DNA of 64,000 bases from positions 1,203-65,202 of the forward strand of contig JBGSPL010000004.1 in assembly GCA_041738615.1 (NCBI GenBank), written 5' to 3'. Of this stretch, positions 3,180-62,110 are shown one piece after another (the stretch's first letter is position 1; every line of letters begins with the position of its first letter). The notes under the pieces are model-generated. The model was not told the origin of the DNA and ran no database searches. It saw only the letters and a program-made list of their open reading frames with translations. Made by a program: the position numbers and the translations under genes. The DNA is from Patescibacteria group bacterium. Lineage in GTDB: Bacteria; Patescibacteriota; CPR2; UBA1875; CAIMLA01.

Positions 3180-3243
3180 TCTCAAGTTACTAGCTAGGGT
3201 TCGCACTTTCATGATAAGATAGGGGTAGAATACAGGAGGGAAA

Positions 3244-41088: not shown

Positions 41089-41283
41089 TTGATCCCTCCT
41101 CTTTCAGCTTCTCCCGAAGCTTGACGTCGATTCTCTGCCTTTAGACAGCTAGCTAACTCCAACAGGTTAGAGGCAATTAGCTGTCTAAAGAAATGTATAG
41201 GTACAAAAAGGATCCACAAACATGGACCCTCCGATATGGTTGAGATAATAACACAAATAGCTTGTTTTTTGAAGAGTTTAAGC

Positions 41284-44191: not shown

Positions 44192-44340
44192 TTCTTTTTA
44201 TGTTTACAAAACGGGGCTGCGTAGTGCACCCCCCAATATCTATATTATATTCCTTTCGGCTCGCTAAAAAAAGTATACAAAGGAGCTAACTATCGAGGGC
44301 GTCATATTCACAATCAGGATCTCCATCTAACGGATCATGA

Positions 44341-45546: not shown

Positions 45547-46850
45547 GGGAGACTAATACTCTCTCGTAAACTGAGTTCACCAACCATTTCTGACTCTTCG
45601 GCTAACCTTTTATTCAATGTTTTAACGAGGATATGCTTATCGATGTGTAGTAGCTGCTTAAATATCTCCTCTAGCACAGGTACAGCGATACTGTTGCCGG
45701 CCATCTTTACAATTTTAGTGTTACTAAAGAAATTATCAGCAACATTTCTTTTAAAGTTGTTATTCATTATCACTTCATAGTCTTTGTCTTCGAAACCCAT
45801 CAGTAAAAGACATTCTCTCCCGGTAAGATACCTAAAGTTACTCTTTCCAGGAAGGTTGTTCTTATAAGCTATGATACCTGAGTTAGGGTGTCTGTCTTGC
45901 TTAGTCGTTAGAGTTAGGGCGATACGGGAGAAGTTTAATCCATCATATAACTTAAGGTTCTTTTCAAAAATCATTTGCCGTGATGGTGTGTCATTGGGTT
46001 GGCTGTCGTTCGCCTCGTTGAGTAATAATTCATTGTTATAATTTAACCTTAAATATTCAGATAGCATCCTAGGTGTTTTTCTGACCTTAGTAAGATCGTT
46101 TGTTTTGAAGTAATCCTCCAGTTTTTTCCTTGTTCTCGTGTTATTCCCGACATAAATACTAATCAGATAAGCACGTTTACGAATCTGCGGCAAACCAAAA
46201 TTGTTGGAGTTAAGAACGTAAAATTGGTTAAAATATCCGAGGTTATCCAAAGATGCTTTCCATTCCTCAAAATTTTTGTTGTGAGAACGAGATATGATAT
46301 TCGGTACATTCTCCATTAATAAAAACTTTGGCATGGGACGAGGGCTAGCTTTTCGCTCCTTGAGGATTCTTTCAATTTCCCATAGCATGCTAGACCGGTT
46401 AGCGGCACTTCGATCGATGCCATCAGTCTTTCCGTGCCAAGCATGAGCGACCGAAAGATCTTGGCAAGGGAAGGAATAGGTCAAGGCGTCCATTTCTTGG
46501 GGCAATAGAGACCCATTCATGTCAGTAACGCTAACATAATTGTTTGTCCTGTCGATAGCTGCGCATAATCTGCATAATACGTCCATGCTTAAGGCTCGAA
46601 TTATCTTCCAATCCGCCATAACCTTGCCATCAGTACTGAGTGTATATTTTTGTAACCTCGACAGCATTTCTTCGCGAGTTGCATCCTTGTACTTCGAAAG
46701 ATCTTGCGGCCCATTGTGAATAAGGTCGTAAGCGATAATTGAATGAATGTCCCAATCGGCAGTTCCAATAATCTCGAAGTCGCATCCAATATTCTTCAAT
46801 GCTTTTGCCTGTGCACCTATGCCGCTAAAGGCCTCTACTACTTTTAACAT
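45543..46850 (-). CDS. DNA (cytosine-5)-methyltransferase
   Basis: Motif I is FSGIGA, the catalytic motif is FPCQDLS, and ENVPN is LLMENVPNI. Confidence 0.9.
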   Translation of the reverse strand: MLKVVEAFSGIGAQAKALKNIGCDFEIIGTADWDIHSIIAYDLIHNGPQDLSKYKDATREEMLSRLQKYTLSTDGKVMADWKIIRALSMDVLCRLCAAIDRTNNYVSVTDMNGSLLPQEMDALTYSFPCQDLSVAHAWHGKTDGIDRSAANRSSMLWEIERILKERKASPRPMPKFLLMENVPNIISRSHNKNFEEWKASLDNLGYFNQFYVLNSNNFGLPQIRKRAYLISIYVGNNTRTRKKLEDYFKTNDLTKVRKTPRMLSEYLRLNYNNELLLNEANDSQPNDTPSRQMIFEKNLKLYDGLNFSRIALTLTTKQDRHPNSGIIAYKNNLPGKSNFRYLTGRECLLLMGFEDKDYEVIMNNNFKRNVADNFFSNTKIVKMAGNSIAVPVLEEIFKQLLHIDKHILVKTLNKRLAEESEMVGELSLRESISLP

Positions 46851-46868
46851 TTACCCTCCATACATACA

Positions 46869-48944: not shown

Positions 48945-48945
48945 A

Positions 48946-49860
48946 CTAATTCTCCTCCCGGTATTTATCTATCGAAGAAAGTGACAAAATGTACTTTGAG
49001 TTGACAATCGCAGCGGGTATATCTTTCCTTCTGATACTTGGGAAATCTGAATTAACGCTATACCTATCAATTTTAGAAAGCTTGAAAGCTGGTTTGTCAT
49101 ACTCTTCACGACAGTAATAGCCAAGATTCAGTAATATTCCACTCAGTTTGTTTTTCAGACTTTCCGTTGTAAGCAGACTAGAGACTTCCGTAAATATTGA
49201 ATTTAGAGTTACCTTCATATTGTCTGACGCACTCGATTTATCAAGATAGACGACTGCTAGCACTCCTGGGATAGGCATATCTAACTGTTCCACTGATGCT
49301 ATCCGAACACTTTCAGCGCCACTTACGGTTGCCTTAACCTCATACCAGGTATTTTCACATACAAAATCTTGGTCAGCTTTCTCCGGACCAATCCATGAGT
49401 TAACAGCAACATCCTGTCCATACTTTGGAATAAGGCAATCTCTTAGAAAGCAGAGTTCTCCAACTAGTCCTTTTATCGCTGATGGTGAAAGTAGCTCTCC
49501 GTTTAGTTTTGCTAACATGTTCTGCCACTTAGTGTATCTGGAAGATATATAGTCAGATCCCTTTCCTTTATTTGTGATTGATCTCGAGGATTCAATAATA
49601 TCTTTGCAAAAATAGTTAAACATATCATCGAAATCGTCATTAATTAAAGAAAAAGAAGTTGCCCATTTTCCATCTTTGCGATTGCCTACAGTCACATTAA
49701 TGATTTGTGATGAATCGATTGCTGCCGGCTGATTATCTGTGATTAATAAAAGCGTCTGTCTAGACATGTCGTCAGAACCTACGTATAAGTCAAGTATGTG
49801 TGTATTATCAACCCTTTGAAATGAGCTTTGGTCTCTAAGCTCAGCGAAATTATTATCCAT
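48946..49860 (-). CDS. PD-(D/E)xK-like nuclease
   Basis: GELCFL...DQDFVCENTWYEVKAT fits a D...E-x-K core. Confidence 0.4.
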   Translation of the reverse strand: MDNNFAELRDQSSFQRVDNTHILDLYVGSDDMSRQTLLLITDNQPAAIDSSQIINVTVGNRKDGKWATSFSLINDDFDDMFNYFCKDIIESSRSITNKGKGSDYISSRYTKWQNMLAKLNGELLSPSAIKGLVGELCFLRDCLIPKYGQDVAVNSWIGPEKADQDFVCENTWYEVKATVSGAESVRIASVEQLDMPIPGVLAVVYLDKSSASDNMKVTLNSIFTEVSSLLTTESLKNKLSGILLNLGYYCREEYDKPAFKLSKIDRYSVNSDFPSIRRKDIPAAIVNSKYILSLSSIDKYREEN

Positions 49861-52636
49861 TTATTACCTCGTCTTGATAATTAGTCTCGTCTATTTCCTC
49901 GAAGTCGTCGTCTATATCAAATAGCTCTTTATACATTACAAGGTTCACCTTGTACTTAAGCATCTTATTTTCACGCCCTTCAATTTCCGGTATCCCGACA
50001 CTTATCCCTATTATAGGTTTTGGTGCAGAACTTGCGTAATTAATCCTATCCTGTATGACCTCACTAGGTATACTCTTATTGTTTGTGTCGGGCGATAGCA
50101 CTACTGGATAAATAACAAGTAATGGATTACGTTTAATACCCTTAAAGTACCTTTCTTGCGCCAACGACAGCCTGGCCCCTGATCTGGCTAACTCTTCTCT
50201 AATAGGCAGTTCTGCCTCAAAGACCTGATCCTTCGTAAGGCCACCTTTTGCGAAGTTTGCACTACCAAGGCGCGACTTAGTGTCAGACATCTGCAGTGCC
50301 TTAGACTCTTTTTTTATACCAAAGTTTCTCATAACATATTTAATATCTAAATTGTCTAGTTTACCGCTAGGCCCCTTGCCACTAGCAATAACAATATCCC
50401 AGTTGTCTACGGTTCCATCCTTATAGTCGTTAATCATAGTAATAAGTGCCTCGGTTTGAAAGTCGATATTAAGATAATGGCTTTCAAACTTAGCAAGATA
50501 TTCTGATACATACTTTTTGGGCACATTCAGGGCTTGTAAGTGTTTTAAAGGTAGATCTACTGGAATTGTAAAATGGTGGCCGTCTTTTGCTAGGGTTTTA
50601 ATCCAATCCTCCGTAACTAGTAAATTATGGTCTAATCTTGATCTGTCTGAGTAAACATATTTAGTTTCGATGACCTTACCGTTTAGGGAAACCGTCATTG
50701 TGTAGTCTTTGGCGGTCTTCATTTTATTGCGCGCCGTTACAAGAAGCGCATTAATGTCAGACCTGACACAAAGACCAAAGTCTTTAGGGGTCTTGTTTTG
50801 CTCCTTCATCCTTCTAACTTCTCTTCTCAATTCATCAGCTGCGACTGAAATATATCTATACCAGTCTATTGCGCCTTCACCCATCCATATTTGGCAAATG
50901 TCGGCGTAGCCCTCTCTATAGCCGAACCATCTTCCCATTTGCATCAAAGTGTCATACATTTTGGAGTTTCTGTAAAAGTAACTGACACACAAACCTTCGA
51001 GTGTTAGCCCCCTAGATAGACTAAAACCACCGATTGCAATTAGCCTTAGCCCGTCCTCTGTATACTCGTCATAATTTAGGTTTTTCGCAGCGTTTCCACC
51101 GTTTACTGTTCTTACAACAATCGAAGCTACAGCTTCATGCAAAGCTTCCTGTATTTCGTCCCAAGTAAATTCGAAGTCTGGTATATTACTAAATTCTTCG
51201 TTAAAGACATCCTTAATAAACGAAAAGGAATTGTAGTTTAATGCCTCTTTCCCGATTAAGTGATAATTTTTAATTTCTCGCTGAAATTCACGTACATAGC
51301 CATCAACTGCTTTTTTAATCTGTTCCTGGACTGCAATGAACCTGCTAACATTCACTAGCATAGAACGATGTTTTGTAGTTTGCCCACGCAAATCTCTTAC
51401 TGCATTACAAATAAAGAAAGATACAACCGCCTTCCTTAGGCTTAGAGGTAGATCTTGGGGAACAAAGTCCTTTTTATGTTTTTCTGGTAAATAGTCTTCG
51501 CAATCATCATTAGCTTTTAGCATATATGAATGGCTACCTTCTTCAGAAAATATACTTCTAGCACCAACATAATTGCTTGGAGCTTCAAGCGCATATATAA
51601 AATCGCTTGGGAACAGATCATCTTTTAGCATCTCATGGTCGGAGTCTGGGTCGATAAATATATTTGCAAAAGGTGTTGCCGTAAAACCAACATAGTTAGC
51701 CTTAGAAAAAAGATTAAGTAATTTTCTTATACAGGCGTTTATGGTAGCGGGATCATCACCGCTTTTAGTATTTACTGAGGCGTTATCTGCCTCGTCGTCG
51801 ATTAGAAGCATTGGTAGTGAACTAGTTTGGCTAACCTCATTTGTGTTATATACCTTTAGCCATCGTTCTAATTTTTCTAATACACTTTTATTTTTCTTAA
51901 GGACAAAAAGGATGGGTGAGTTTATTCCTGCCAGTTGACCGTTTAACGACCCCGCAGTTGCTTGATTAAAATCATTTGTAGTCGATGTAACGGCCCACCC
52001 TGAAACACTTGGGTTTATGTTACCAACTCCCACAAACGCCTTGCTCTTGTCTCTGATAAAAGCAGTGCTGTCAAGTCCGACAAATCCTTCGTCTAATCTT
52101 CCTTGTGTTTGTTTTCTAAGTTTTTCAATAGTACCGGTAAGCAAAATCACAACCTTGTAACCAGCATCGGAAGCCTTATTAATGAGTGCCGTATAGGTTG
52201 CCGTTTTCCCTGATTGAACATCGCCGATAACAAGTCCGCGCCTCTGAAAGTCTTTGTCACCGGAAGGATTACCAAGTAGATCCATCATTTCGTCTGTTGA
52301 TTCATCTAATGACGCGATAACTTTTGGTGGGAACCCAGCATCCTTTATTAAATAGGTGGCATACCTGTCCCAGAAATCTGTTTTTAGATCTTTCTTTGCG
52401 GAGTTATACCAAGGTACATGGTCTTTACTCACCACGCAAGCTCCTCTATCCATACGTATTTCCAACATCGCATGTAGAGAGCTTAACATGTCTGACCTTT
52501 CCGTTTCTGAGATAGGGTAAAGCCTTGCAAAAACATTAACTAAATCTGATAACGCATCTTCGGTAATAATAGCATCTGGATCAATGCTTATCATGACATG
52601 ACTCATGATAAGTTTTTGATTTTTATTCATTATCAA
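49853..52636 (-). CDS. Z1-domain-like P-loop ATPase/helicase-like protein
   Basis: Walker A is GDVQSGKTATYTALI and Walker B-like is LLIDDEADNAS. The protein is 927 aa and overlaps both neighbours. Confidence 0.5.
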   Translation of the reverse strand: MIMNKNQKLIMSHVMISIDPDAIITEDALSDLVNVFARLYPISETERSDMLSSLHAMLEIRMDRGACVVSKDHVPWYNSAKKDLKTDFWDRYATYLIKDAGFPPKVIASLDESTDEMMDLLGNPSGDKDFQRRGLVIGDVQSGKTATYTALINKASDAGYKVVILLTGTIEKLRKQTQGRLDEGFVGLDSTAFIRDKSKAFVGVGNINPSVSGWAVTSTTNDFNQATAGSLNGQLAGINSPILFVLKKNKSVLEKLERWLKVYNTNEVSQTSSLPMLLIDDEADNASVNTKSGDDPATINACIRKLLNLFSKANYVGFTATPFANIFIDPDSDHEMLKDDLFPSDFIYALEAPSNYVGARSIFSEEGSHSYMLKANDDCEDYLPEKHKKDFVPQDLPLSLRKAVVSFFICNAVRDLRGQTTKHRSMLVNVSRFIAVQEQIKKAVDGYVREFQREIKNYHLIGKEALNYNSFSFIKDVFNEEFSNIPDFEFTWDEIQEALHEAVASIVVRTVNGGNAAKNLNYDEYTEDGLRLIAIGGFSLSRGLTLEGLCVSYFYRNSKMYDTLMQMGRWFGYREGYADICQIWMGEGAIDWYRYISVAADELRREVRRMKEQNKTPKDFGLCVRSDINALLVTARNKMKTAKDYTMTVSLNGKVIETKYVYSDRSRLDHNLLVTEDWIKTLAKDGHHFTIPVDLPLKHLQALNVPKKYVSEYLAKFESHYLNIDFQTEALITMINDYKDGTVDNWDIVIASGKGPSGKLDNLDIKYVMRNFGIKKESKALQMSDTKSRLGSANFAKGGLTKDQVFEAELPIREELARSGARLSLAQERYFKGIKRNPLLVIYPVVLSPDTNNKSIPSEVIQDRINYASSAPKPIIGISVGIPEIEGRENKMLKYKVNLVMYKELFDIDDDFEEIDETNYQDEVING

Positions 52637-54080
52637 ATTCCTCTCTCACTGCCTTCACGACATCGGGGTACTTAAGGAAGTATTCAAATTTATCCATGTT
52701 TTTTACAAAGGCACTAACATCACCGCCAGTTTTCTTAATTGCATCAATAGAATCTATCGCAATTTTATATACCTCATCAAATTCTAATGCTGCTGGCTGG
52801 GCACTACTGCCACTTTTTGCTACACGGTAGTAGATATCTCCATATGGGAAAGAGTCTTCAACTGTTTTAATAAACGAATCAAGCCGACTTAATTCGTTCT
52901 CGTCCAGTGACTCTTCTAATGCTTTGTACAGTGGCAAGTCTTTATTGATTAGATATTGAAGCGAGCCCCTATTGTCTATGTGGTTCCAAACATGAACTAG
53001 CTCATCACTATTAACATTTCTTCCACGATATTTATATACCCGTTCGCTTTTACCTACAGTACTTTCAACTATATTAACTAAACTCTTTTTTACAACGTCC
53101 GGGAGAGAGGCAGTCGATTTCTTTACATCAATTTCCCATATTGAATCAAGCGTATTTGGGATATCTACTCGGACTCTTGCTAACTTGTTCAGTTCATATT
53201 GCTTAATTAGCCTAAACCAGGTACCCCAAACAATAAGCCGTTTATTCCTATAAACATAGAATCCCTGGCTTTGCTTCAAGTCCATATCCCCCATAATCTT
53301 TTTGTCTTTTGTTGTTAGCTTTGAAGCAAATGGCAAAATATATGGCTTAACTTTGATGGAACTACCGTCAATTGTTATTTCTTGTTCAGTTAACGGCTGA
53401 GTCGCTGGATTGCTTTCCAAGAATGGGTCAATTAGTTCTATTCTGTTGTTGTTAAAGAATATTTTTACAGAGTTAAGTGGCCCCAAAAATCTATGGAAAA
53501 CGAGCGATACATGAGAACTCGCAATTTCAATCTTTTCGTCAAATACCTTGTGTAGTTGGGCTGATCCATTCGTCAGCCTATCAAAGTCTTCCCAGATAAC
53601 AATAGTCCCACTTTTTTGATCATTCAGCATGTCTACATGTTGGATCTTATTGATTTCTTTTTCATCTAACCTTAATAAAACCCAGTCACTTTTCTCAATT
53701 ACACGGTCGAGGTCCCACCTAGCTCCGTTTAGATTTCCATTTTTCTTAGTAATTACTGTTAGTTTTCGACACTGTGATAAAGAGGCCACTTTTAATCCCA
53801 GCCCAAAGCGTCCTAGGTCATGTGAGTCCCTTACTTCTAGTGAGCTTTTACTGCCGTAACGCATTGCCGTTTCGAGCTCTTCACTGTCCATCCCACAGGC
53901 ATTGTCAATAACTGCGACATAGGGGTTATCTTTAGAGCGAAAATTTACGTGAATCTCTTTTGCGCCCTTACCAATACTGTTATCAATGATATCTGCCAAG
54001 GCAGCTTCAAAAGAATACCCAATTGATCTCGTTGATTCTACGAGTATGGGGGCATATGGAGTTAAAATTATTTCTTTCAT
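52623..54080 (-). CDS. GHKL/HATPase_c-type ATPase (MORC-like HATPase_c_3)
   Basis: The N-box is ADIIDNSI, G1 is VIDNACGMD, and G2 is GRFGLGLK. Confidence 0.75.
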   Translation of the reverse strand: MKEIILTPYAPILVESTRSIGYSFEAALADIIDNSIGKGAKEIHVNFRSKDNPYVAVIDNACGMDSEELETAMRYGSKSSLEVRDSHDLGRFGLGLKVASLSQCRKLTVITKKNGNLNGARWDLDRVIEKSDWVLLRLDEKEINKIQHVDMLNDQKSGTIVIWEDFDRLTNGSAQLHKVFDEKIEIASSHVSLVFHRFLGPLNSVKIFFNNNRIELIDPFLESNPATQPLTEQEITIDGSSIKVKPYILPFASKLTTKDKKIMGDMDLKQSQGFYVYRNKRLIVWGTWFRLIKQYELNKLARVRVDIPNTLDSIWEIDVKKSTASLPDVVKKSLVNIVESTVGKSERVYKYRGRNVNSDELVHVWNHIDNRGSLQYLINKDLPLYKALEESLDENELSRLDSFIKTVEDSFPYGDIYYRVAKSGSSAQPAALEFDEVYKIAIDSIDAIKKTGGDVSAFVKNMDKFEYFLKYPDVVKAVREEFDNE

Positions 54081-54292: not shown

Positions 54293-54321
54293 TTGACAAG
54301 TATTGTATACTGAAATATAAT
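54293..54321 (+). promoter_or_regulatory. Consensus sigma-70 promoter TTGACA-N17-TATAAT
   Basis: The -35 and -10 hexamers are exact consensus with a 17-nt spacer. It lies 160 nt upstream of the ParB-MTase gene. Confidence 0.45.
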
Positions 54322-54480
54322 TAACTCAAGGTACGTCTAGCGCGTATCGGCACCAACACAATTCACTTAAAAATAGAACTGAACGGGTAACACCCGGAAT
54401 AGGAGACAACAAGATGATTATTTTGTTGTTTTTTGTTTCGGGTGTTTTTATTAACAATAATCTCTTGAAAGGAGAAAGAA

Positions 54481-55818
54481 ATGGACAAACTAGAAACTGT
54501 CTATGTGAACATAGACGATCTAAACCCCGCCCCCTATAACCCCAGGAAATGGGGCAGAAAGTCACTAGATGACTTGAAGGAATCGATAAAGCGCTTTGGG
54601 GTGGTCGACCCCGTGATCCTGAACGGACACAAGGATAGGTCCAATGTGGTTGTAGGGGGCCATATGCGTATTGCCGCGTGTCGGGAACTTCAAATACTGA
54701 GCATACCTGCGGTGTATGTCTATATCGAAGACGTTGAGCTCGAGAAACAGCTGAATATTCGCCTTAATAAGAATCGTGGTGAATTCGACTTAACTCTTTT
54801 GGCTGAGTTCTCGGAGGAGCTACTCACAGATATTGGCTTCACGTCAGAGGAAATTGATGATGTCTACGGTATCGAAGAGAAAACAGAGATGTTTGACCTC
54901 GAGAAGGAGCTCAAGAAACTGGATATCACAACAATCGAGATGCAGAAGGGAGAAGTATGGCAACTAGGTGATTCCAGGATGATGATAGGAGACAGTACCG
55001 TAGAGAATGACGTCATGAAGCTCATGGGAGATGAGAGGGCAGATATGTGCCTGTGCGACCCTCCATATCTTCTGGACTACCTGTCGGCTAAGCGACACGG
55101 CGGTGCCGTAACGGGCTTTGGAGCCAAAAAGAACCGTCGCTACCTCGAAACGGATGTTCTCCCACCTGATTTCACCGAAAAGTGGATGGCAAATGTGGCA
55201 AAAGTCCAGAAACCCGATTTTTCAATCATTGTCTACGAGAATCCAAAGAACCTAAGGACAATTTGGAATGAGCTCGAGAAACACTGGAAATACCGTAACA
55301 CTATCGTCTGGCATTTGCCGAATCGTGTGCAGGGCTTCTCAGCTAAATATAAGTTCTTCAATAAGTCCGATATCGCTCTGGTTGGTACTAAGGGAAATGT
55401 CGAGCTGAACCTAGGGCCAGAGTCAGAGGAGCTGTTCCAAGGTGAGTATGAGAATGCCTTATTCGCTACGTCTGGATGCCCTCATTGGGAAGGATACTCC
55501 AAGGGTAAGAAAATTTGCCCCACGGACTTTATAGAATTTGTCGCGGCTGACGAAAAGAGCTCAGGTCAAGGTATTATCTTCGGAACCAAGCCGATTGAAA
55601 TACTAATTCCATATATAAAAGTACTCACAAAACGAGATGACCTGATCATCGAGACTTTTGGTGGCTCAGGGTCGACCTTGATTGCGGCCGTCAAGATGAA
55701 AAGACGCTGTTATCTGATGGAGAAGTCGCCCGTCTACGCAGAGGTTATTAGGAATCGTTGGGAAAAATTAACCGGCCAAAAAGCCGTAAGAATCGAGGCT
55801 AAAAATGAAAGTAAATGA
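54481..55818 (+). CDS. ParB-like nuclease domain fused to DNA N6-adenine/N4-cytosine methyltransferase
   Basis: The ParB N-terminus reads VYVNIDDLNPAPYNPRKW. DPPY is motif IV, and FGGSGST is motif I placed C-terminally (a permuted class). Confidence 0.8.
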   Translation: MDKLETVYVNIDDLNPAPYNPRKWGRKSLDDLKESIKRFGVVDPVILNGHKDRSNVVVGGHMRIAACRELQILSIPAVYVYIEDVELEKQLNIRLNKNRGEFDLTLLAEFSEELLTDIGFTSEEIDDVYGIEEKTEMFDLEKELKKLDITTIEMQKGEVWQLGDSRMMIGDSTVENDVMKLMGDERADMCLCDPPYLLDYLSAKRHGGAVTGFGAKKNRRYLETDVLPPDFTEKWMANVAKVQKPDFSIIVYENPKNLRTIWNELEKHWKYRNTIVWHLPNRVQGFSAKYKFFNKSDIALVGTKGNVELNLGPESEELFQGEYENALFATSGCPHWEGYSKGKKICPTDFIEFVAADEKSSGQGIIFGTKPIEILIPYIKVLTKRDDLIIETFGGSGSTLIAAVKMKRRCYLMEKSPVYAEVIRNRWEKLTGQKAVRIEAKNESK

Positions 55819-56206
55819 AAAGGCGAAAGCAGAATTACTAGAAATACTCTCTAAGAATCCCATCCTACAACCCGCCTGTGATCGTTGTGGGATCAGTAGG
55901 GCGACATACTTTCGTTGGAAAGCCGATGACAAGAAATTCAAAGAGGAAGCAGACAAGGCTATTGTCGAGGGTCGGATACTAGTCTCTGAGTTGTCGGAGT
56001 CAAAGCTACTATCCGCAATCAAGAACGAGAATCTTGGAGCTATCAAATTCTGGCTACAGAACAATGATCCAAGGTATGCACAAAAGCTAATTACGACTGG
56101 CGAAGTTACCGTAATCCATAAGGAGCTAACTCCTGAGCAAGAAGCCAGTATTAAGGAGGCACTGATGCATGCGGATATTAAGATAGGTGGGAGTAATATG
56201 GGATGA
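55805..56206 (+). CDS. HTH protein, putative terminase small subunit
   Basis: It has the helix-turn-helix CGISRATYFRWK. It overlaps and precedes the large terminase gene. Confidence 0.4.
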   Translation: MKVNEKAKAELLEILSKNPILQPACDRCGISRATYFRWKADDKKFKEEADKAIVEGRILVSELSESKLLSAIKNENLGAIKFWLQNNDPRYAQKLITTGEVTVIHKELTPEQEASIKEALMHADIKIGGSNMG

Positions 56207-57651
56207 ACAAAGAAAAAGAGGTTGAAAACTTTATGGAGATAGTCAGTGATCCCGAAACTCGGGTTGCACTAACCACTAGAAGCCATTATTACTTTTTCTA
56301 CATCTATTTTAGTGGCTATATTCAGCACGACATCGCTCCGTTTCAAAAGCAAATGTTCGCCATTACAGAAGATAACGGCGTTCCGCTAACAGTGATTGTA
56401 AGCTTTAGAAATAGCGGTAAGTCTACTCTGATCACTATGTCTTATGTGCTTTGGGCAATTCTTGGAATACAAAAGAAGCGATTTATTTGTATTATCAGTC
56501 AAACACAGGAACAGGCACGAACACATTTCAGGAGCTTGAAAAAAGAGCTAGAGAACAATACGTTGCTGAGAGATGATCTCGGACCGTTTAGAGAAGAGGA
56601 GGAGTGGAATTCATCGACTCTGGTTCTCACAAAATATAATGCCAGAATAATGATTGCTTCACGTGACCAGTCTTTCAGAGGTGTTAGACACAGAGAAGTT
56701 CGCCCTGACCTAATTATTTGTGATGATATCGAAGACATTAACTCGGTGAGAACTAAAGAGGGTCGAGACCATACTTACAACTGGTTTAACTCAGAAGTAG
56801 TACCGCTAGGAGATTTGGGGACTAAAATAGTGGTAGTGGGTAACAAATTACATAAAGACTCTCTGATAAAAAGACTCGAAGATGAAATCATTGGTGGTGA
56901 TCGAAAAGGAATCTATCGGGAGTATCCAGTTATTAAAAGTAATGGAAAGATTCTATGGCCTGGAAAGTACCCCAACCAAGAGGCGATTGACGAGCTGAAG
57001 GCCAAAACCAGCTATTTGTCGTGGAACCGAGAATACTTACTAAGAATAATTGATGATCAGGAACCAGTGGTTGATAGGGAGTGGGTCAGGTATTACCAAG
57101 AAATTCCACCATCTAATTATGACCATCGGAGAACCTTCGCTGTTGGTATAGATTTGGCTGTATCCGAAAAGGAAAAGGCGGACTATTCCGCCTTAGTAAG
57201 TTGCGAAATCATCGGGACAGGCGATGATATGAAAATATACATATTACCAAACCCCATCAATTCAAGGATGAGGCTACCAGTGACAGCTGATACCACAATA
57301 AATCTTGTAGGATCATGGGGCGAAAGAGCCAGCTATATGGTTTATGTAGAGGACGTTGGGCAACAAAGGGGCTTGGTGCAACTTCTAGAGGATAGAGGTA
57401 TCAATGCATGCGGTGTTCTTATCGGCAGGAATGACAAGAGGACTAGGCTGGCAATTGTTTCTGAGTACATTAGATCTGGGAAGATCATCTTCCCAGAGAA
57501 GGGTGCCAACGCCCTTATGATGCAGATACTCGACTTCGGAGTGGAATCTCACGATGATCTTGTAGATGCTTTTACAACCCTGATTTTGGGAATAATGAAC
57601 AATCCGCCCGTACAATTCGTGGGTAGGATAAGATTGGGAGGGCTAATGTAA
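56203..57651 (+). CDS. Phage terminase large subunit-like
   Basis: Walker A is SFRNSGKSTL and Walker B is LIICDDIEDI. The C-terminal RNase-H-like nuclease Asp residues are in VGIDLAV and DDLVDAF. Confidence 0.7.
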   Translation: MNKEKEVENFMEIVSDPETRVALTTRSHYYFFYIYFSGYIQHDIAPFQKQMFAITEDNGVPLTVIVSFRNSGKSTLITMSYVLWAILGIQKKRFICIISQTQEQARTHFRSLKKELENNTLLRDDLGPFREEEEWNSSTLVLTKYNARIMIASRDQSFRGVRHREVRPDLIICDDIEDINSVRTKEGRDHTYNWFNSEVVPLGDLGTKIVVVGNKLHKDSLIKRLEDEIIGGDRKGIYREYPVIKSNGKILWPGKYPNQEAIDELKAKTSYLSWNREYLLRIIDDQEPVVDREWVRYYQEIPPSNYDHRRTFAVGIDLAVSEKEKADYSALVSCEIIGTGDDMKIYILPNPINSRMRLPVTADTTINLVGSWGERASYMVYVEDVGQQRGLVQLLEDRGINACGVLIGRNDKRTRLAIVSEYIRSGKIIFPEKGANALMMQILDFGVESHDDLVDAFTTLILGIMNNPPVQFVGRIRLGGLM

Positions 57652-57696
57652 AAACGTCTGGACTTTATCTCGATTCAGCGGCATCCTTGTCCCTGT

Positions 57697-58968
57697 ATGG
57701 AATACGACTACTGTTTATACGCAAGAAAATCAACTGAATCTGATGAAAAGCAGGCGCTAAGTATTGATTCTCAGATCAAAGAAATGACTGAGATCGCCAA
57801 GCGGGACGGCTTGAAAATAGTTGAGGTAAAAAAGGAAAGCCATTCTGCCAAAGAAAGTGGCACAAGGCCTGTTTACAACGAAATTATTCAGGATCTAAAA
57901 AATGACAAGTACCAGGGGCTCATTTCTTGGGATGTCTCAAGGATTGGCAGAGCAGCTGGAGATATCGGGCTTCTAATAGACCTTATGGATCAGAAACACT
58001 TATGTGAGATACGAACATACAGTCAGATGTTTACTAATTCACCAAACGACAAGTTCCTTCTAATGATACTTGGGTCCCAAGCTAAATTTGAAAATGATAG
58101 CAGGGCCATAAACGTTGTAAGAGGCATGAAAACCAAGTGCCAGATGGGCCATAGGCCTTGCATGCCGCCGTTGGGCTACCTAAACACTAAAAACCCCGAG
58201 AGGGGTATGAGTAGGATCATTCTTGACCCCAAAAGGGCTTCTATCGTTCGTGAGATGTTTGAACGGTCAGCAAGCGGTGAATCTGGGCGTGACATCATCA
58301 AGTGGGCCACTGAGCAGGGTCTAACCAACAAAAAGGGCAAATCTATACCAAATAGCACTTTCTTCAATATGATAAAGAACCCATACTACTATGGAGAATT
58401 TGAATGGCCAAAAGGCAGTGGTAATTGGTATAAGGTTGCACATAAGTCCATTATTACCAAGGAGTTATTTGACCAGGTGAGAGATAGGGTCGCTGATATG
58501 TATAAAGGTGCCTACGGCACTAAAGAATTCGACTTTACCGGCATGTTCAAGTGCGGAACCTGCGGGTGCGGGGTCAGCGCATCGGAAAAGTTTAAAAACA
58601 TAAGCGACGGGACCAGAAGAAGATACGTTTACTATGTCTGCACCAAGGGCACAAGACAGGAGTGCAAGCAGCCATACATCCGGGAAGAAGTACTCCTTGA
58701 GGAGCTGATTATGCTAATGGATAAGATAGATATAAATAAGGTCAAAGGCAAGGCTAAGCTCGAGAGAGAGATTGCAAGATATAATAAGTTTACTCAAGGA
58801 GTGATTGGACAAGGGCTTAGCGAGGTCAAAGCATCGAAGCTAGACTTAAAAACGTATGCAAAATATGTCCTAACAGAGGGCAACCGAGATGAGAAAAGAG
58901 AGCTTCTGTCCTGCCTGAATACCACCATCTACATAAATAACCGTAAATTATATACTAAGCTACAGTAA
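57697..58968 (+). CDS. Large serine recombinase (resolvase/invertase catalytic domain + recombinase domain + zinc ribbon)
   Basis: YARKSTESDEKQ...SIDSQ is the catalytic Ser region. The zinc ribbon is CGTCGCGVS...C. Confidence 0.85.
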   Translation: MEYDYCLYARKSTESDEKQALSIDSQIKEMTEIAKRDGLKIVEVKKESHSAKESGTRPVYNEIIQDLKNDKYQGLISWDVSRIGRAAGDIGLLIDLMDQKHLCEIRTYSQMFTNSPNDKFLLMILGSQAKFENDSRAINVVRGMKTKCQMGHRPCMPPLGYLNTKNPERGMSRIILDPKRASIVREMFERSASGESGRDIIKWATEQGLTNKKGKSIPNSTFFNMIKNPYYYGEFEWPKGSGNWYKVAHKSIITKELFDQVRDRVADMYKGAYGTKEFDFTGMFKCGTCGCGVSASEKFKNISDGTRRRYVYYVCTKGTRQECKQPYIREEVLLEELIMLMDKIDINKVKGKAKLEREIARYNKFTQGVIGQGLSEVKASKLDLKTYAKYVLTEGNRDEKRELLSCLNTTIYINNRKLYTKLQ

Positions 58969-58969
58969 C

Positions 58970-60454
58970 CTAAACCTTTTCTAAATATTCCCAAATTTTT
59001 ACCATGGCCATTGTGTCTAATCCACAATAATCCCAAAGGTCTTTAAGGATTTTTTCTTTCTCAAGTGGCCGTTTCTCATCTAAAACTGCCTGCATCCATA
59101 GTCTTTGAGCGAGCAATCCGTCGGATATATCTAGATCCTTATAACTTAATTCGGGTATCAAAACAGGCAGAACCTGCTTGATTGAAGCGCTTCCACCAAA
59201 TGCAGCGTCAACATAGTGAAAGTCAAAGAAGGGAATCATTAGGTCAACGAACCTTTTATTCAACTTATCGTAATAATCCGCAAATTCTGGGTGTATTTTA
59301 CCCATGTCAGTGTTACAACCCTGCTCAAACTTCATATTCCAAGCAATGATGGACCCCTTGGGGCCAATGTCTTTCATCAGAGACTCTGTTAACGGCTTGA
59401 TTGGATCACTTTTCTCAGAATGCAGGTACTCAACGTGCTTCAGTTCAGCGCCAGGCTTTTCTAGAAAATGGAGCGAGTATTGAAATGGAATCTGTTTGTT
59501 TGGGCTATAACCATCGAAGTACGGAATGACACTACCAAGAGTTTCGTAGTCTAGAAAGTAAATAGGGTATTTTATCTCAGTAAGAAATGCCGTTAGTTTA
59601 ACTTTATCGATCAATACTTTCTTCTCTTGAACTGACTGAACCTGCCATCGCTGTTTATCGGAGAGTCCCTCAAAGACGACAGGGATATCTGTAAGTTTAC
59701 TGATCGAAGCTTCTTCTAGTTTCTTGATTAACGTGGCGCTAGGATTATATAGGTCATAGATACTACCGTCGCCAGGCTTTATACCCTTAATCAATTTGTA
59801 GATTTTAATCCATTCAGAAGTACAATTGAGACCACAAACCGAGGGAGTGGGCTCGGGCATGTTTGGTGATTTAGCGGTTTCAAGGGCTCTCTTGATATCC
59901 TCTCGGGTAGCATCAATCCTTTTCTTAACTTTTTCAGTCACGTCAACCATAGTTGCTATCTCTGCAGGATTTACTTCACCCTTACGTACGTACTCACGGT
60001 TCACATGGACAATGCTAATCTTGTTTACCTTGTAGCCAGAGTCTTCGAGGACAACAGCCTGAAAGGCTAAATCATGTTCATGGTTAGTTCGGGGGCCAGT
60101 AGAAGACTTAATCTCAATTAGATCAACCTCATCTTTTCCCACAAACTGAATCACATCGAAAATACAGGTGATCTCACCAACTTCAAGGCGCCCCTGGAAG
60201 ATGGTTTTTGCACCAGACATAATAGCCTCACGTGTCCTTTGTGGCAGATCCAAATACTCTCGGTAACCTTCCCAATTGAGCTTTATTCCATCGGGAAAGA
60301 GCTTCTCTGCATATGACTCAAATAAATAGCCAGTATCAAAGAGTGCCTGCGTAGCATCATCCACTTGAGGCAGAAGTTTTGCGTTATTTTTTTTAATCCA
60401 AAGCCAAGCGGGATGCCTGAGGTACAACATATAGTCAGACTTTGATAACTGCAT
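58970..60454 (-). CDS. DUF2779-like protein: N-terminal Cas4/RecB-like PD-(D/E)xK nuclease + C-terminal RNase-H-like domain
   Basis: DLIEIKSS is the D..E.K core. A Cys cluster reads PSVCGLNC, and FLDYETL is an exonuclease-like motif. Confidence 0.4.
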   Translation of the reverse strand: MQLSKSDYMLYLRHPAWLWIKKNNAKLLPQVDDATQALFDTGYLFESYAEKLFPDGIKLNWEGYREYLDLPQRTREAIMSGAKTIFQGRLEVGEITCIFDVIQFVGKDEVDLIEIKSSTGPRTNHEHDLAFQAVVLEDSGYKVNKISIVHVNREYVRKGEVNPAEIATMVDVTEKVKKRIDATREDIKRALETAKSPNMPEPTPSVCGLNCTSEWIKIYKLIKGIKPGDGSIYDLYNPSATLIKKLEEASISKLTDIPVVFEGLSDKQRWQVQSVQEKKVLIDKVKLTAFLTEIKYPIYFLDYETLGSVIPYFDGYSPNKQIPFQYSLHFLEKPGAELKHVEYLHSEKSDPIKPLTESLMKDIGPKGSIIAWNMKFEQGCNTDMGKIHPEFADYYDKLNKRFVDLMIPFFDFHYVDAAFGGSASIKQVLPVLIPELSYKDLDISDGLLAQRLWMQAVLDEKRPLEKEKILKDLWDYCGLDTMAMVKIWEYLEKV

Positions 60455-60711
60455 GTTACTTCTTTTCTCGATATCCTTTGACGGAAAAGATTATAGTTAA
60501 AGTTAATAGGGAAACTGCTAAAAACAGAAAAACAAAAGATAGACCTAGTTCAAATAGACTGTTTTTAAAGGCTAAATCGGCAAGCTGTTCTCGGCCATCC
60601 ATAAATTGAAATGACCCGATCTTAATGGCTGCAGTCGATAGATGAACCGCCGAGAATAATATCCCTGCAGTAATACTCAGCAACCCAAGTATCTTCGCTA
60701 ATTCCAAATTT

Positions 60712-61794
60712 TTATTCATTATTTGCGGCTTCATCTACAGCTATTTTAATCCCTTCCTTGTTTTTTATCCAATGATCCGTCTTTATAACTGGCTGCTTTG
60801 TATAGTTTTCGTACGAATCAAGGATCTCAAAGTCTGTCTTTTTGGATAAAATGGCCCCTAATTTGTCCCTGAAAGCTGTGGCAACATCGCTGTCATTCAG
60901 CCAATTAAAGTTTATTTGCATGGGCCCATTTGTCCAGAGCGTAATAATGGATCTTTTTTGCGAAATAGAGGGTATTAGAAAGTTCATTGATCCAGAAACT
61001 GAGCCAGATCCCCATTCAACTCTTCCTTTTTTGCAGAAATAATCATACATATCTTTTATTTCCGAAAGCTCGCTAGCATTCAGGGTCTCCTGTGCTTTTT
61101 GGAAGAAACTGGTTTCGTCCCATTTTCGTCTTGCTGAGCCACCACTTACCCCGATGTCCTTTTTCACTTCTGCACCAAACAACTTCGGGATGATAATCTC
61201 ATTTTCTTCAAACTTGTAGTAGTCAAACTGCACAGCGTAAATATCGAATTTGCTGTTCTCGTTAACAAATAGGATCAAATCCTTTAGACGATCGTCAATC
61301 TCATCCATTAATATGATGAATTTAAACTTACCGTGGTTAAGATTCTCTTTTATTGTGTCTAAAAGCAGATCAATCACACTATCGTCTATCCCAAACTCTT
61401 GAGATATCTTCTCTCGGGTGTTCTTACTCTCCTTTTTAGTCAGATATCTGTCGGTATACTCTATGAATCGATTGAAATCTATTGACGATTTCCAAAGCGA
61501 TGCCCCGTAGTCAAGGGCTTGTGCGACAACAGTCCTTTTGTCGGCATTTTTGAATAGTTTTGTCTCAATGATATAGATGTCACCATCGCTATCAATTCCA
61601 AGGGCATCGATTGGACCGCTGCCAGTAGCGAACTCTCGCGCCATGATTAACACCTTTATGTCGTTCTTTATCTCATACAGGGGGATACTTAGCGGATTAT
61701 CGTCGATATACTTCTGCATATTATCCTCATAATCAAAGGAGGTCTTTTCTAGCTTCTTTGCATTCTTGCCATTTTTGGTAATTATAATTGCCAT
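60712..61794 (-). CDS. PD-(D/E)xK-like nuclease-family protein
   Basis: GPIDALGIDSDGDIYIIETK contains a D...D..E-x-K core. Confidence 0.35.
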   Translation of the reverse strand: MAIIITKNGKNAKKLEKTSFDYEDNMQKYIDDNPLSIPLYEIKNDIKVLIMAREFATGSGPIDALGIDSDGDIYIIETKLFKNADKRTVVAQALDYGASLWKSSIDFNRFIEYTDRYLTKKESKNTREKISQEFGIDDSVIDLLLDTIKENLNHGKFKFIILMDEIDDRLKDLILFVNENSKFDIYAVQFDYYKFEENEIIIPKLFGAEVKKDIGVSGGSARRKWDETSFFQKAQETLNASELSEIKDMYDYFCKKGRVEWGSGSVSGSMNFLIPSISQKRSIITLWTNGPMQINFNWLNDSDVATAFRDKLGAILSKKTDFEILDSYENYTKQPVIKTDHWIKNKEGIKIAVDEAANNE

Positions 61795-61891
61795 CTTGCT
61801 TCTCCATTCGTGCTCAATCTTAGCATAGTTCTGCCTAAAATGATAGTTATTGGCTGTAGAGCAACTGGCATCATTTCTTTAGTGTATAACC

Positions 61892-62110
61892 ATGGCAAAG
61901 AAAACAGCGACAAAAATAAGTTTCGGGAATAAGTTAAGGCAGGTACGCAAGGAGGCGGGAATCTCTCAAGAAGAGCTTAGCTTCAGATCGGGGCTTCACA
62001 GAACCTATATTGGTGCAATTGAAAGAGGCGAGCAAAGCGTATCTGTAGACAATATTACTAAGCTAGCACGTGCACTGAAGGTGAAAACGAAAGATCTATT
62101 TGATTTTTAG
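61892..62110 (+). CDS. XRE-family HTH transcriptional regulator
   Basis: LRQVRKEAGISQEELSFRSGLHRTYIGAIERGE is a Cro/C1-type HTH. Confidence 0.75.
   Translation: MAKKTATKISFGNKLRQVRKEAGISQEELSFRSGLHRTYIGAIERGEQSVSVDNITKLARALKVKTKDLFDF

Follow-up and report, generated by a model that had tools for sequence, protein, structure and literature searches.

The window, i.e., the whole stretch of 64,000 nucleotides that was analysed, contains a cassette of four co-directional phage-type genes at 54481–58968, surrounded by defence genes. The features are as follows.

41089..41283, no strand assigned: inferred left junction between pyrF and the first island gene (GC fall and missing pyrD)
41284..42372, minus strand: conserved left-arm gene (cluster c8), Zn-ribbon and HTH-like, 362 aa, function unassigned
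42546..45546, minus strand: proposed cargo, namely an unknown 235-aa ORF, a Hypoth_Ymh/HEPN-like gene and an AspBHI-like methyl-directed restriction enzyme
45543..54080, minus strand: proposed cargo, the Mza defence system (Dcm methylase, then AIPR/MzaE, DUF4420/MzaD, Z1-helicase/MzaC and HATPase_c_3/MzaB)
54293..54321, plus strand: perfect sigma-70 consensus promoter (TTGACA, 17 nt, TATAAT; 12/12 match, consensus match only)
54389..54455, plus strand: leader hairpin of 27 bp with an adjoining U-tract, downstream of the promoter and ahead of the ParB-methyltransferase start
54481..55818, plus strand: ParB_N-fused N6/N4 DNA methyltransferase (ParB-MTase), 445 aa
55805..56206, plus strand: small terminase-like HTH protein (TerS), 133 aa
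56203..57651, plus strand: large terminase (TerL; ATPase and RNase H-like nuclease), 482 aa, intact
57697..58968, plus strand: large serine recombinase (LSR), presumed integrase/excisionase, 423 aa
58970..62110, minus strand: probable right-arm cargo, namely a DUF2779/Cas4-like nuclease, a 92-aa ORF and a PDC-S11-like defence candidate (Pfam, PADLOC)
61892..62110, plus strand: small XRE HTH gene, probable right-arm cargo

All four cassette ORFs are present on the plus strand with domain or PHROG matches, in agreement with the first-pass annotation. The ParB-MTase matches ParB_N (9.8e-10), N6_N4_Mtase (6.5e-18) and phrog_498 (7.8e-74), with its DPPY motif at residues 193–196, and TerL matches phrog_38 (3.3e-70) and Terminase_6C. 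The LSR carries three domains, Resolvase, Recombinase and Zn_ribbon_recom, and matches the integrase family phrog_95 (3.2e-61). The domain matches of the TerS candidate (HTH_Tnp_1_2, 1.2e-6; four PHROG terS families, about 3e-4) are weak alone, and its identity is backed by its position and by a profile–profile comparison with the TerS of related phages (hhalign 88.7%, E = 2.6e-6), which also match PF13022, the same Pfam family as the window TerS. The ParB-MTase and TerS genes overlap by 14 nt and those of TerS and TerL by 4 nt, with a gap of 45 nt between TerL and LSR. Opposite-strand genes flank the cassette on both sides: the stop codon of the DUF2779/Cas4-like gene lies 1 nt past that of the LSR, and the head-to-head arrangement with the Dcm operon described earlier, across an AT-rich gap of roughly 400 bp, is borne out (400 bp, 32.5% GC). 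Using HMMs built from related phages, no match to portal, prohead protease, HK97 capsid or connector was found in any frame of the 64-kb window; the 1.2 kb known past its end contains an HD-domain gene besides short ORFs on the minus strand.

The promoter points toward the cassette, and the leader (54328–54485) is predicted to fold with −48.7 kcal/mol (z = −5.8), a stability reached by none of 200 shuffled sequences. Its hairpin appeared terminator-like in a terminator scan, and a similar hairpin with a T-tract occurs within 250 nt upstream of the ParB-MTase in 50 of 114 cassettes, vs. 8 of 114 when shuffled. A search of the leader against Rfam returned no family above threshold. Judged from its sequence alone, the hairpin is possibly an attenuator or an antitermination target.

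The GC content is 46.8% in 1–41100 and 40.5% in 41101–64000, and the drop at about 41.1 kb coincides exactly with the expected position of pyrD, which lies immediately upstream of pyrF in relatives and is missing from positions 1–65194. From this drop and the broken pyrD–pyrF synteny, the left edge of the island is inferred to lie at about 41.1–41.3 kb. Neither an att site nor a tRNA nor a right boundary of the window copy was seen in the sequence examined, beyond which the right end lies; because this end is outside the data, no direct repeat could be assigned to the left junction, and the att repeats anticipated around the window copy were not recovered. The c8 gene, for which Pfam gives weak Zn-ribbon matches only, has homologues upstream of the ParB-MTase in 17 loci, mostly on the opposite strand, and is 82.7% identical to the copy in locus L006, although the two TerLs share no more than 57% identity and the flanking regions are different.

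The cargo assignments rest on Hypoth_Ymh (9.3e-14) and RE_AspBHI_N (1.9e-50) with Mrr_cat in Pfam, on mREase_II (9.8e-139) in PADLOC and, for Mza, on PADLOC matches to MzaB (1.8e-78), MzaC (2.6e-137), MzaD (8e-18) and MzaE (1.2e-82), whose domains are also found by Pfam. Homologues of the DUF2779/Cas4-like, PDC-S11-like and XRE HTH genes lie next to cassettes in 10, 9 and 20 other loci, respectively, and the right-arm genes at 58970..62110 are inferred to belong to the window copy, whose right boundary lies outside the sequence examined. The earlier suggestion that the Dcm (Mza) island is cargo of the element gains indirect support from the inferred left edge, the recurrent left-arm gene and the defence genes that fill the same island position in relatives; the AspBHI-like enzyme and the remaining nearby defence genes are proposed to travel with the element as cargo.

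The same gene order was found in genomes, IMG/VR and metagenomes, at 213 loci in all (133 cassette-clade loci and 80 metagenome loci), mostly labelled Patescibacteria, with TerLs 42–59% identical to that of the window. Portal, protease, capsid and connector genes are missing within 10 kb at all 213 loci, as checked with HMMs for the 80 metagenome loci and with gene clusters for the other 133, and besides the cassette genes no other neighbour is conserved. Adjoining capsid and tail genes, which would have made the element an ordinary intact prophage, are absent here and in every relative. The ParB-MTase was found in 146 of 161 loci of the genome and viral sets, and the TerS family in 104 loci, every time between ParB-MTase and TerL. 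The LSR lies downstream of TerL on the same strand in most loci; about 15–40% have no LSR within 10 kb, many of them short contigs. Several genomes or contigs carry two copies, and the cargo in relatives includes RM systems, reverse transcriptases, XRE/ImmA and DUF4352. Such elements had been thought to be rarely described in CPR-like genomes; instead, relatives are encoded in no fewer than 554 species-level genomes, in 272 IMG/VR stretches and in 551 or more metagenome stretches, with more than 2414 TerL homologues. The window cassette is one copy of a previously undescribed, very large family of mobile islands in hundreds of CPR genomes, and is not a one-off prophage remnant.

More distant TerLs (≤41% identity to that of the window) sit in real phage contigs with the order ParB-MTase, TerS, TerL, portal, protease and HK97 capsid. 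In a neighbour-joining tree, 23 TerLs form one clade, which the midpoint root splits from 145 cassette TerLs; 18 of them are followed by a portal+MuF, S78 protease or HK97 capsid gene, and the remaining 5 are on phage-like contigs. As it also stands before TerS–TerL in the related true phages, the ParB-MTase is assigned to the ancestral phage packaging module; the anti-restriction role given to it in the first-pass annotation is an inference only.

All four cassette genes are under strong purifying selection, with dN/dS values of 0.01–0.14 in six close pairs (0.012–0.07 for TerL). The TerL residues of Walker A (K73), Walker B (D174/D175), E177 and the nuclease (D317, D411, D452, D455) are kept in 130–133 of 133 cassette TerLs, D193 of the DPPY motif is invariant (126/126), and Y8/R10/S12 of the LSR are kept in 97–98 of 99. 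In one close pair (L078/L102), the nucleotide homology ends at the end of TerL, showing that the LSR is not always co-inherited; TerL and LSR pairwise distances correlate only weakly (Spearman 0.27).

In relatives, 23 of 60 loci carry a tRNA no further than 3 kb downstream of the LSR, all 23 on the minus strand, vs. about 2 expected by chance. In five loci, direct repeats of 18–63 bp at the tRNA 3′ end pair with a site upstream of the methyltransferase: 24 bp in L047, 18 bp in L065, 30 bp in L168, 21 bp in L188 and about 63 bp in L133, where the similarity extends over 100 bp; a weaker repeat of 13 bp was seen in L018. The repeat-bounded elements span 9.6–17.3 kb with their defence cargo included, and the left arm of L133 likewise holds a Hypoth_Ymh gene. 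Long direct repeats fit tyrosine integrases more typically than LSRs. No tyrosine integrase was found in the repeat-bounded elements, and in those of L047, L065 and L133 the LSR is the sole recombinase found; that the LSR uses the tRNA-adjacent repeats is inferred. No terminal repeats were found among contigs wholly contained in their extracted locus. Nothing was found that pointed to excision, circular forms or encapsidation; nor was a replication module recognised, and the genes upstream of the methyltransferase are uncharacterised.

The satellite or PICI-like reading offered earlier remains the best fit, and a decayed prophage is set aside, given the conservation in 213 independent loci and the purifying selection. 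With somewhat better than even confidence, the window is proposed to hold a phage satellite that integrates at tRNA genes, is mobilised by its LSR, has its own terminase and depends on a helper, this last point being inferred and not shown. The retention of packaging enzymes and integrase without capsid or tail genes suggests that it probably spreads in hijacked helper-phage capsids. Such an island would descend from a siphovirus-like phage lineage, of which only the front of the late operon (ParB-MTase, TerS, TerL) was retained and joined with an LSR and variable, mostly anti-phage cargo. The LSR would insert a circular form beside or in a tRNA 3′ end, as judged from the repeats in relatives and not from the window copy, and the leader terminator below the strong promoter may keep the packaging operon off. 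Upon infection by a helper phage with a compatible portal, the operon would be read through and the element excised or amplified; its ParB-MTase may methylate the DNA ahead of packaging, its TerS would bind element DNA, and its TerL would cut and pump this DNA into helper-made procapsids, a step inferred because the catalytic sites are intact and under selection and no capsid gene is present. Against this reading, a TerL without a cognate portal must fit a foreign one, and no helper phage was identified.

We know of no characterised satellite class that is defined by TerS and TerL without capsid genes. PICIs (e.g., SaPIs) are similar in being integrated, att-flanked islands of 10–17 kb without capsid, tail or lysis genes, with a packaging gene that redirects helper capsids and with accessory or defence cargo. 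However, PICIs have tyrosine integrases, a primase/replicase–ori module and a regulator (Stl or AlpA), and their own packaging genes are limited to TerS (or Rpp/Ppi), the TerL being that of the helper, whereas the CPR island has a serine integrase, TerS, TerL and ParB-MTase and no recognisable replication module. The cf-PICIs and the mycobacterial phiRv1-type elements are small islands which, like the CPR island, have their own TerS and TerL, and phiRv1 also shares the use of an LSR, but these elements encode capsid, portal, protease and connector, none of which was found in the window or in the 213 loci. LSRs insert the staphylococcal SCC at the 3′ end of a conserved target gene, with direct repeats of tens of bp and variable cargo; the likeness is limited to integration style, as SCC has neither terminase genes nor tRNA targets. 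PICMIs, VEIMEs and EPIPs resemble the island in their very small gene set and helper-supplied capsids, but occupy other hosts (Vibrionaceae, marine bacteria, Mycolicibacterium), and none has the ParB-MTase/TerS/TerL/LSR core, EPIPs adding capsid, scaffold and tape-measure genes. The PLEs of Vibrio cholerae are also capsid-less, LSR-integrated satellites strongly tied to anti-phage defence (PMC6002521). Unlike the CPR island, PLEs have no terminase, depending on and manipulating the ICP1 packaging motor (bioRxiv 10.1101/2024.04.22.590561). PLEs also differ in being confined to one species.

It is unlikely, though not to be dismissed, that the island moves by other means and that its ParB-MTase, TerS and TerL form an anti-phage device, in which the resident terminase cuts or mis-packages the concatemers of related invading phages or titrates their procapsids. 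The position of the cassette amid defence islands, by Mza, RM, PDC-S11 and reverse-transcriptase genes, would suit such a device, as would the lack of observed replication genes and circular forms, and the strong promoter with its leader terminator could serve as a phage-sensing switch. However, terminase-based defence of this kind was not found in the PADLOC models or the literature searched, and the tight linkage to an integrase and att repeats suits self-mobilisation. Moreover, this role does not exclude a satellite, because satellites normally interfere with their helper as a side effect of packaging.

A GTA-like domesticated platform for lateral or generalised transduction appears improbable. 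Here the chromosomal TerS and TerL would begin packaging in situ, without excision, from a fixed pac site, and capsids encoded elsewhere or by a phage would be filled with neighbouring chromosomal DNA, the defence island among it; cargo indeed lies directly upstream and downstream of the cassette, circular forms were not seen, and defence islands of other bacteria are documented to undergo lateral transduction (PMC12829572). However, capsid genes are absent from the 64 kb of the window and within 10 kb in the 213 loci, and the integrase, tRNA-end repeats, several copies per genome and differing contexts indicate a self-mobile element rather than a vertically kept host function.

Little credence is given to the 4.5-kb cassette alone being the mobile unit, a serine-recombinase transposon-like module inserted in an older, unrelated defence island. 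Of 51 complete cassettes, 23 have the LSR immediately after TerL, and in the window the genes are contiguous, somewhat higher in GC than the rest of the island (43.9% vs. 40.5%) and enclosed by opposite-strand genes. However, variable genes separate TerL from LSR elsewhere in relatives, whose repeats and conserved arm genes lie 2–4 kb ahead of the methyltransferase and as far as several kb past the LSR, and no att sites hugging 54.4–59.0 kb, which would have refuted the original proposal, were found. A decayed, defective prophage, with four genes left after an ordinary temperate phage lost its structural, lysis and replication genes, is very improbable and largely refuted: all four genes are of phage type and related true phages have ParB-MTase, TerS and TerL in the same order, but no structural-gene fragment remains in any frame of the window, the cassette TerLs cluster apart from phage TerLs, the reduced architecture is shared by independent loci across many CPR lineages, and the low dN/dS with near-invariant catalytic residues is the opposite of decay.

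The first-pass annotation had called four co-directional phage-type genes, i.e., a ParB-fused methyltransferase (ParB-MTase, PM), a small and a large terminase subunit (TerS and TerL) and a large serine recombinase (LSR), and all four ORFs of this cassette are present within 54481-58968 on the plus strand:

54481-55818, plus strand: ParB-MTase, 445 aa (ParB N-terminal domain, 9.8e-10; N6/N4 DNA methylase, 6.5e-18; phrog_498, 7.8e-74)
55805-56206, plus strand: TerS-like HTH protein, 133 aa (PF13022, 1.2e-6; PHROG terS families weakly, ~3e-4)
56203-57651, plus strand: TerL, 482 aa (phrog_38, 3.3e-70; Terminase_6C, 1.7e-7; GpA_ATPase, 3.6e-5)
57697-58968, plus strand: LSR, 423 aa (PF00239, 2.8e-21; PF07508, 2e-16; PF13408, 3.7e-8; phrog_95, 3.2e-61)

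The ParB-MTase carries a DPPY motif at residues 193-196 and an FGGSG AdoMet motif near its C-terminus, and its ORF overlaps the TerS-like ORF by 14 nt. The latter lies directly 5′ of TerL with a 4-nt overlap, and a gap of 45 nt separates TerL from the LSR. With its predicted ATPase Walker A and B motifs, catalytic Glu and RNase H-like nuclease, the 56203-57651 product meets the definition of a phage large terminase, and its profile has a PDB match to the ATPase of T7 gp19 (3.8e-5); no cultured-phage relative was found above 26% identity. The LSR likewise qualifies as a phage-type large serine recombinase, with the Resolvase, Recombinase and Zn-ribbon domains all present. A family-level hhalign comparison of the cassette TerS with the TerS of related true phages gave 88.7% (E 2.6e-6), with no oligomer, fold or pac-binding data available. 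To the left of the cassette, a 400-bp gap of 32.5% GC is followed by the minus-strand operon of the Mza defence system, and to the right the stop of a convergent DUF2779/Cas4-like gene falls 1 nt past that of the LSR.

The absence of virion genes was examined using HMMs built from the nearest true phages for portal (+MuF), S78 prohead protease, HK97 capsid and connector. None of these matched in any reading frame of the 64-kb window, where the TerL, LSR, methyltransferase and TerS HMMs each matched only their own expected gene, confirming the earlier statement that no structural genes sit beside the cassette. No structural-gene match was found by HMM in 80 metagenome loci, and no portal, protease, capsid or connector among the ORF clusters within 10 kb on each side of 133 cassette-clade loci. 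The cassette thus fulfils the satellite criterion of lacking genes for virion building, and it fulfils neither the criterion of an intact prophage (contiguous structural, lysis and replication modules) nor that of a cf-PICI (own capsid, portal, protease and head-tail connectors). The first 40 kb of the window are normal chromosomal sequence of the host, with genes for PilB/PilT, phosphoglucomutase, M16 peptidases and an ABC-F protein as well as pyrE and pyrF, and the 1.2 kb beyond the window, taken from a 36-kb Logan contig that stops there, hold an HD-domain gene and two small minus-strand ORFs. The PilB-like (MshEN + T2SSE) and PilT-like ATPases at 1410-4308 (plus strand) represent type IV pilus/competence machinery typical of CPR.

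More than 2414 homologues of the window TerL pass E<1e-10 (59% identity for the best of those listed), many of them lying on contigs of 0.1-0.9 Mb, and those named by source belong to Berkelbacteria, Peregrinibacteria or Patescibacteria. Scans of sequence collections, whose counts are lower bounds, gave at least 554 relatives in a pattern scan with each GTDB species represented by one genome, 272 in IMG/VR and at least 551 in JGI metagenomes. Fetched loci (L numbers) were limited to 10 kb on each side, with ORFs called by a simple longest-ORF rule (code 11) and grouped into single-linkage BLASTP clusters. Only four clusters are widespread among the 161 genome and viral loci, i.e., TerL (161), ParB-MTase (146), TerS-like (104) and LSR (101), the next commonest reaching 32/161. 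The gene order is constant, with ParB-MTase, a methylase-like gene of ~258 aa in about half of the loci, TerS and then TerL, and the LSR lies on the same strand as TerL, either directly after it or 1-10 variable genes later; the 80 HMM-annotated metagenome loci have the same order. This second methylase-like gene, found between PM and TerS in about half of loci L003-L242 (e.g., L003, PM+447 PM+257), is missing from the window copy.

Host labels were taken from record titles, and the lineages given in most of these belong to CPR (Saccharibacteria, Berkelbacteria, Peregrinibacteria/Peribacteria, Paceibacterota, Woesebacteria, Dojkabacteria, Levyibacteriota, Kuenenbacteria and others). Of the 80 genome loci, roughly one in four is labelled otherwise (Gammaproteobacteria, Bdellovibrionales, Flavobacteriaceae), in third-party MAG records whose labels are unverified. 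Two cassettes occur in one genome or contig for L003+L009, L048+L074, L094+L114, L088+L117 and L121+L122. Full-length tandem pairs of TerL paralogues (~520-580 aa each) were seen in L014, L017, L023, L028, L077, L080, L085, L089-L091 and L096, mostly in Peribacteria-type cassettes, with dN/dS of 0.02-0.04 indicating purifying selection on both copies; several of the loci have no called TerS-like ORF.

The first-pass annotation had left room for a decayed prophage. In six close pairs, dN/dS was 0.03-0.10 for the methyltransferase, 0.007-0.13 for TerS, 0.012-0.07 for TerL and 0.012-0.14 for the LSR. The TerL residues K73 (Walker A), D174/D175 (Walker B) and E177, as well as the nuclease residues D317, E383, D411, D452 and D455, are kept in 130-133 of 133 cassette TerLs; the LSR residues Y8/R10/S12 in 97-98 of 99 (S12 and R10 in 98/99); and ParB-MTase D193 in 126/126. 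Purifying selection together with conserved catalytic residues effectively excludes decay, and that option falls away.

The boundaries of the element were best defined in relatives. Using ARAGORN, a tRNA was found within 3 kb downstream of the LSR in 23 of the 60 loci with enough sequence, compared with ~2 expected from the tRNA density of the same loci. These comprise 13 Ser, 5 Gln, 3 Glu, 1 Gly and 1 Asp tRNAs, all 23 on the minus strand, so that the tRNA 3′ end faces the LSR; the metagenome loci showed a similar pattern (Ser, Asn, Gln, Asp). A repeat search pairing the tRNA region with sequence on the opposite side of TerL, in which a chance 18-mer is expected at ~1e-4 per locus, yielded direct repeats touching or overlapping the tRNA 3′ end in five strong cases and one weak case:

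Direct repeats at tRNA 3′ ends in relative loci
L047: 24-bp repeat, tRNA-Ser, element of 9.6 kb
L065: 18-bp repeat, tRNA-Lys, element of 12.2 kb
L133: ~63-bp repeat (similarity over 100 bp), tRNA-Ser, element of 14.4 kb
L188: 21-bp repeat, tRNA-Asn, element of 15.4 kb
L168: 30-bp repeat, tRNA-Arg, element of 17.3 kb
L018: 13-bp repeat (weaker), tRNA-Ser, element of 14.7 kb

The left-hand copy of the repeat precedes the methyltransferase by 2-4 kb. Outside the repeats of L047, the left flank has a deacylase-like ORF and the flank past the tRNA a ComF-like one, both host-like in appearance (read from the sequence without a search). Neither a tyrosine integrase nor a replication protein was recognised in L047, L065 or L133, and the lack of a tyrosine integrase leaves the LSR as the only candidate integrase. 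A shared element was seen in two pairs of loci with ~90% nucleotide identity, i.e., L043/L049, which have ~7.5 kb in common ending at a tRNA-Ser, and L017/L023, which have 7.9 kb in common, the flanks being unshared in both. The cargo inside repeat-bounded elements includes restriction-modification, DUF4352, a reverse transcriptase with a four-helix partner, XRE/ImmA pairs, Hypoth_Ymh/HEPN and unknowns; XRE and ImmA-like regulators occur in some loci only. Reverse transcriptases (~330-370 aa) recur as cargo in L008, L018, L036, L102, L103, L106 and L121, and in several loci (e.g., L008, L018, L102, L106) they are paired with a four-helix-bundle-like ORF of ~115-127 aa.

The satellite criterion of being bounded by att sites is thus met in relatives by the tRNA-end repeats, but not in the window copy, for which the flanking att repeats that the first-pass annotation had proposed to seek were not found and whose right end lies outside the data. 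When 40.3-44.3 kb was compared with 57.6-65.2 kb for exact repeats of ≥12 nt, only chance 12-mers were obtained, and the same was true from the 54.05-54.5 kb gap to the right side. No tRNA lies near the cassette, the sole one in the window being a tRNA-Arg at 17331-17406, and none was found in the 1.2-kb extension. Because neither a tRNA nor a repeat was found, the limits of the window island are only partly defined. The 4.5-kb cassette as the sole mobile unit remains a rival reading.

On the left, the GC content drops at ~41.1 kb from 46.8% to 40.5%, and the strand bias flips at the same point. The nearest pyrF relatives (72-73% identity; L244, L246, L247) carry the three genes as pyrD-pyrF-pyrE, spaced by 1-15 nt. 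In the window, pyrE (39635-40342, minus strand) and pyrF (40360-41088, minus strand) are present, and pyrD is absent from the whole 65.2 kb, so that the island begins exactly at the expected pyrD position. The comparison with related genomes provided a synteny break at pyrD but no true empty site, the closest pyrF being only 73% identical. The two pyr genes have 60% GC, against 46.8% in the remaining host portion of the window, and pyrF is 72.5% identical to its nearest relatives, whereas pyrE is only 34% identical to the pyrE of those relatives; the pyr genes may be foreign or rearranged themselves.

The first gene inside the island, 41284-42372, belongs to a cluster (c8; Zn-ribbon + HTH-like) found upstream of the methyltransferase in 17 loci, mostly on the opposite strand. 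It shares 82.7% protein and 80% DNA identity with the copy in L006 (1282-2397), despite 57% identity between the two TerLs and differing flanks, which suggests recent module exchange or unusually strong constraint. Neither the c8 gene nor the variable genes that immediately precede the methyltransferase in relatives gave a significant Pfam or PHROG match. The stretch from c8 to the cassette contains an unknown ORF and the following:

43250-44191, minus strand: Hypoth_Ymh/HEPN-like gene
44341-45546, minus strand: AspBHI-like 5mC-directed endonuclease, adjoining the Mza operon
45543-54080, minus strand: complete Mza system in one co-directional operon (Dcm methylase, MzaE/AIPR, MzaD/DUF4420, MzaC/Z1 helicase, MzaB/HATPase_c_3)

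Membership of this operon in the Mza defence system is supported by profile scores (PADLOC MzaB-E, 8e-18 to 2.6e-137; Dcm-type methylase, 5.6e-50), and the adjacent AspBHI-like gene places a predicted cytosine methylase and a methyl-cytosine-dependent nuclease side by side. A 39-bp intergenic stretch at 44241-44279 (ATTATATTCCTTTnnGCnCGCTAAAAAAAGTATACA), promoter-like on the minus strand, is 90% identical to 4284-4322 of L006 with unrelated neighbouring genes, and may be a shared cassette junction. Homologues of genes to the right of the cassette occur beside other cassettes (DUF2779/Cas4-like in 10 loci, PDC-S11-like in 9, small XRE in 20), and L004 has the order TerL, a 210-aa ORF, DUF2779, a small ORF, PDC-S11-like, a small ORF and c8. 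Based on these recurrent arm genes and the left-edge evidence, at least 41.1-62.1 kb is regarded as one island or a composite of islands, which probably extends past 65.2 kb (≥24 kb) and whose defence load makes it larger than the repeat-bounded relatives.

IMG/VR loci whose TerL is ≤41% identical to that of the window have different genes downstream, i.e., a portal-MuF fusion of 700-750 aa (Phage_portal, 2.6e-61), a Peptidase_S78 protease, an HK97-type capsid (Phage_capsid, 5.5e-27) and a gp6-like connector. In many contigs of this phage clade, ParB-MTase (sometimes with Dcm) and TerS precede TerL, and one phage-clade TerS family matches PF13022 (7.9e-7), as the window TerS-like protein does. 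A neighbour-joining tree of 168 full-length TerLs, without support values, is parted by its midpoint root, on a short branch, into 23 phage-context and 145 cassette-context sequences, with mean identities of 48% within cassettes and 39% between the two groups. The simplest reading of these sequences is that the cassette descends from the late-operon packaging end of such a phage and later diversified as a cassette.

Among known satellites, PICIs are closest in manner of working, but membership failed on integrase type, on the carriage of TerL and on the replication module, the PICI criterion (primase/replicase with ori, and a master repressor or AlpA) being unmet. Membership in cf-PICI and phiRv1-type elements failed because the family lacks capsid genes, and PLEs share the serine integrase but, unlike this family, have no terminase of their own. 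No description of the cassette was found by full-text literature searches or in the CPR-phage and satellite papers that these yielded, and none of the current satellite classes listed in PMC12822802 matches the family.

What was observed is a conserved, selected, integrase-linked, tRNA-associated island family with a complete terminase and no virion genes. By inference, the island terminase would package the island into the capsids of a helper phage, none of which has been identified and which would be related to the portal-bearing clade, and the methyltransferase would modify the DNA. The broader proposal, i.e., a CPR/Patescibacteria phylum-wide satellite class with TerS, TerL and ParB-MTase, without a capsid, whose LSR acts at tRNA 3′ ends and which is a main vehicle of defence islands in these very small genomes, is in our judgement evenly poised between true and false. 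Several results count against packaging: no circular or terminal-repeat contigs were found as excised forms, and the linkage of the LSR to the packaging genes is imperfect. A mirror-tree test of TerL/LSR co-inheritance gave only a weak correlation because the distances are saturated. No encapsidated form has been seen, and neither Pfam nor PHROGs identified a replication protein in the window island or its repeat-bounded relatives. The repeats in relatives are also longer than the crossover cores of characterised phage serine integrases, which counts against the proposal; serine recombinases can leave such repeats in SCC elements. Two other roles remain open, i.e., that the cassette is a lateral-transduction platform and that the terminase serves an anti-phage function.

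CPR make up a large share of bacterial diversity. To our knowledge, almost nothing is known of their gene exchange, with few plasmids, conjugative elements and phages and no satellites known. If packaging by a helper holds, CPR would have their first satellite family, which would be a missing intermediate from TerS-only PICIs to capsid-forming PICIs and, present in 550 or more species-level genomes, a major path for the spread of defence genes in this group (cargo of restriction-modification, Mza, reverse transcriptases and others). A TerL without a capsid raises the question of how a foreign motor would dock on a helper portal, and the family is a compact natural source of large serine recombinases with presumed targets at tRNA ends. 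In CPR genomes, the cassette-clade TerL is also a ready marker by which such islands can be located and told apart from true prophages. IMG/VR lists many of these islands as viral contigs (L083-L126 and others; 4-55 kb), presumably because of TerL; they are cassette-type islands or CPR chromosome pieces rather than phage genomes.

Upstream of the cassette, a perfect TTGACA-17-TATAAT promoter (54293-54321, plus strand) is followed, before the ParB-MTase start codon, by a 27-bp hairpin and U-tract (54389-54455), the leader folding at −48.7 kcal/mol (z = −5.8). Since the upstream gene is divergent, the hairpin is not its terminator. A hairpin with a T-tract within 250 nt upstream of the methyltransferase was found in 50/114 cassettes versus 8/114 shuffled controls, some of the 50 possibly terminating a co-directional upstream gene. 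No Rfam family came near threshold for the leader hairpin, which may be a conserved regulatory RNA. We hypothesise that the leader terminator blocks the strong promoter and that the operon would wait for an antiterminator, e.g., the late regulator of a helper phage, so that cassette expression may be gated by a helper-sensed leader terminator. Hairpins with a shared end (...CTGGGCGTTTTT) were also seen in L018, L031 and L097.
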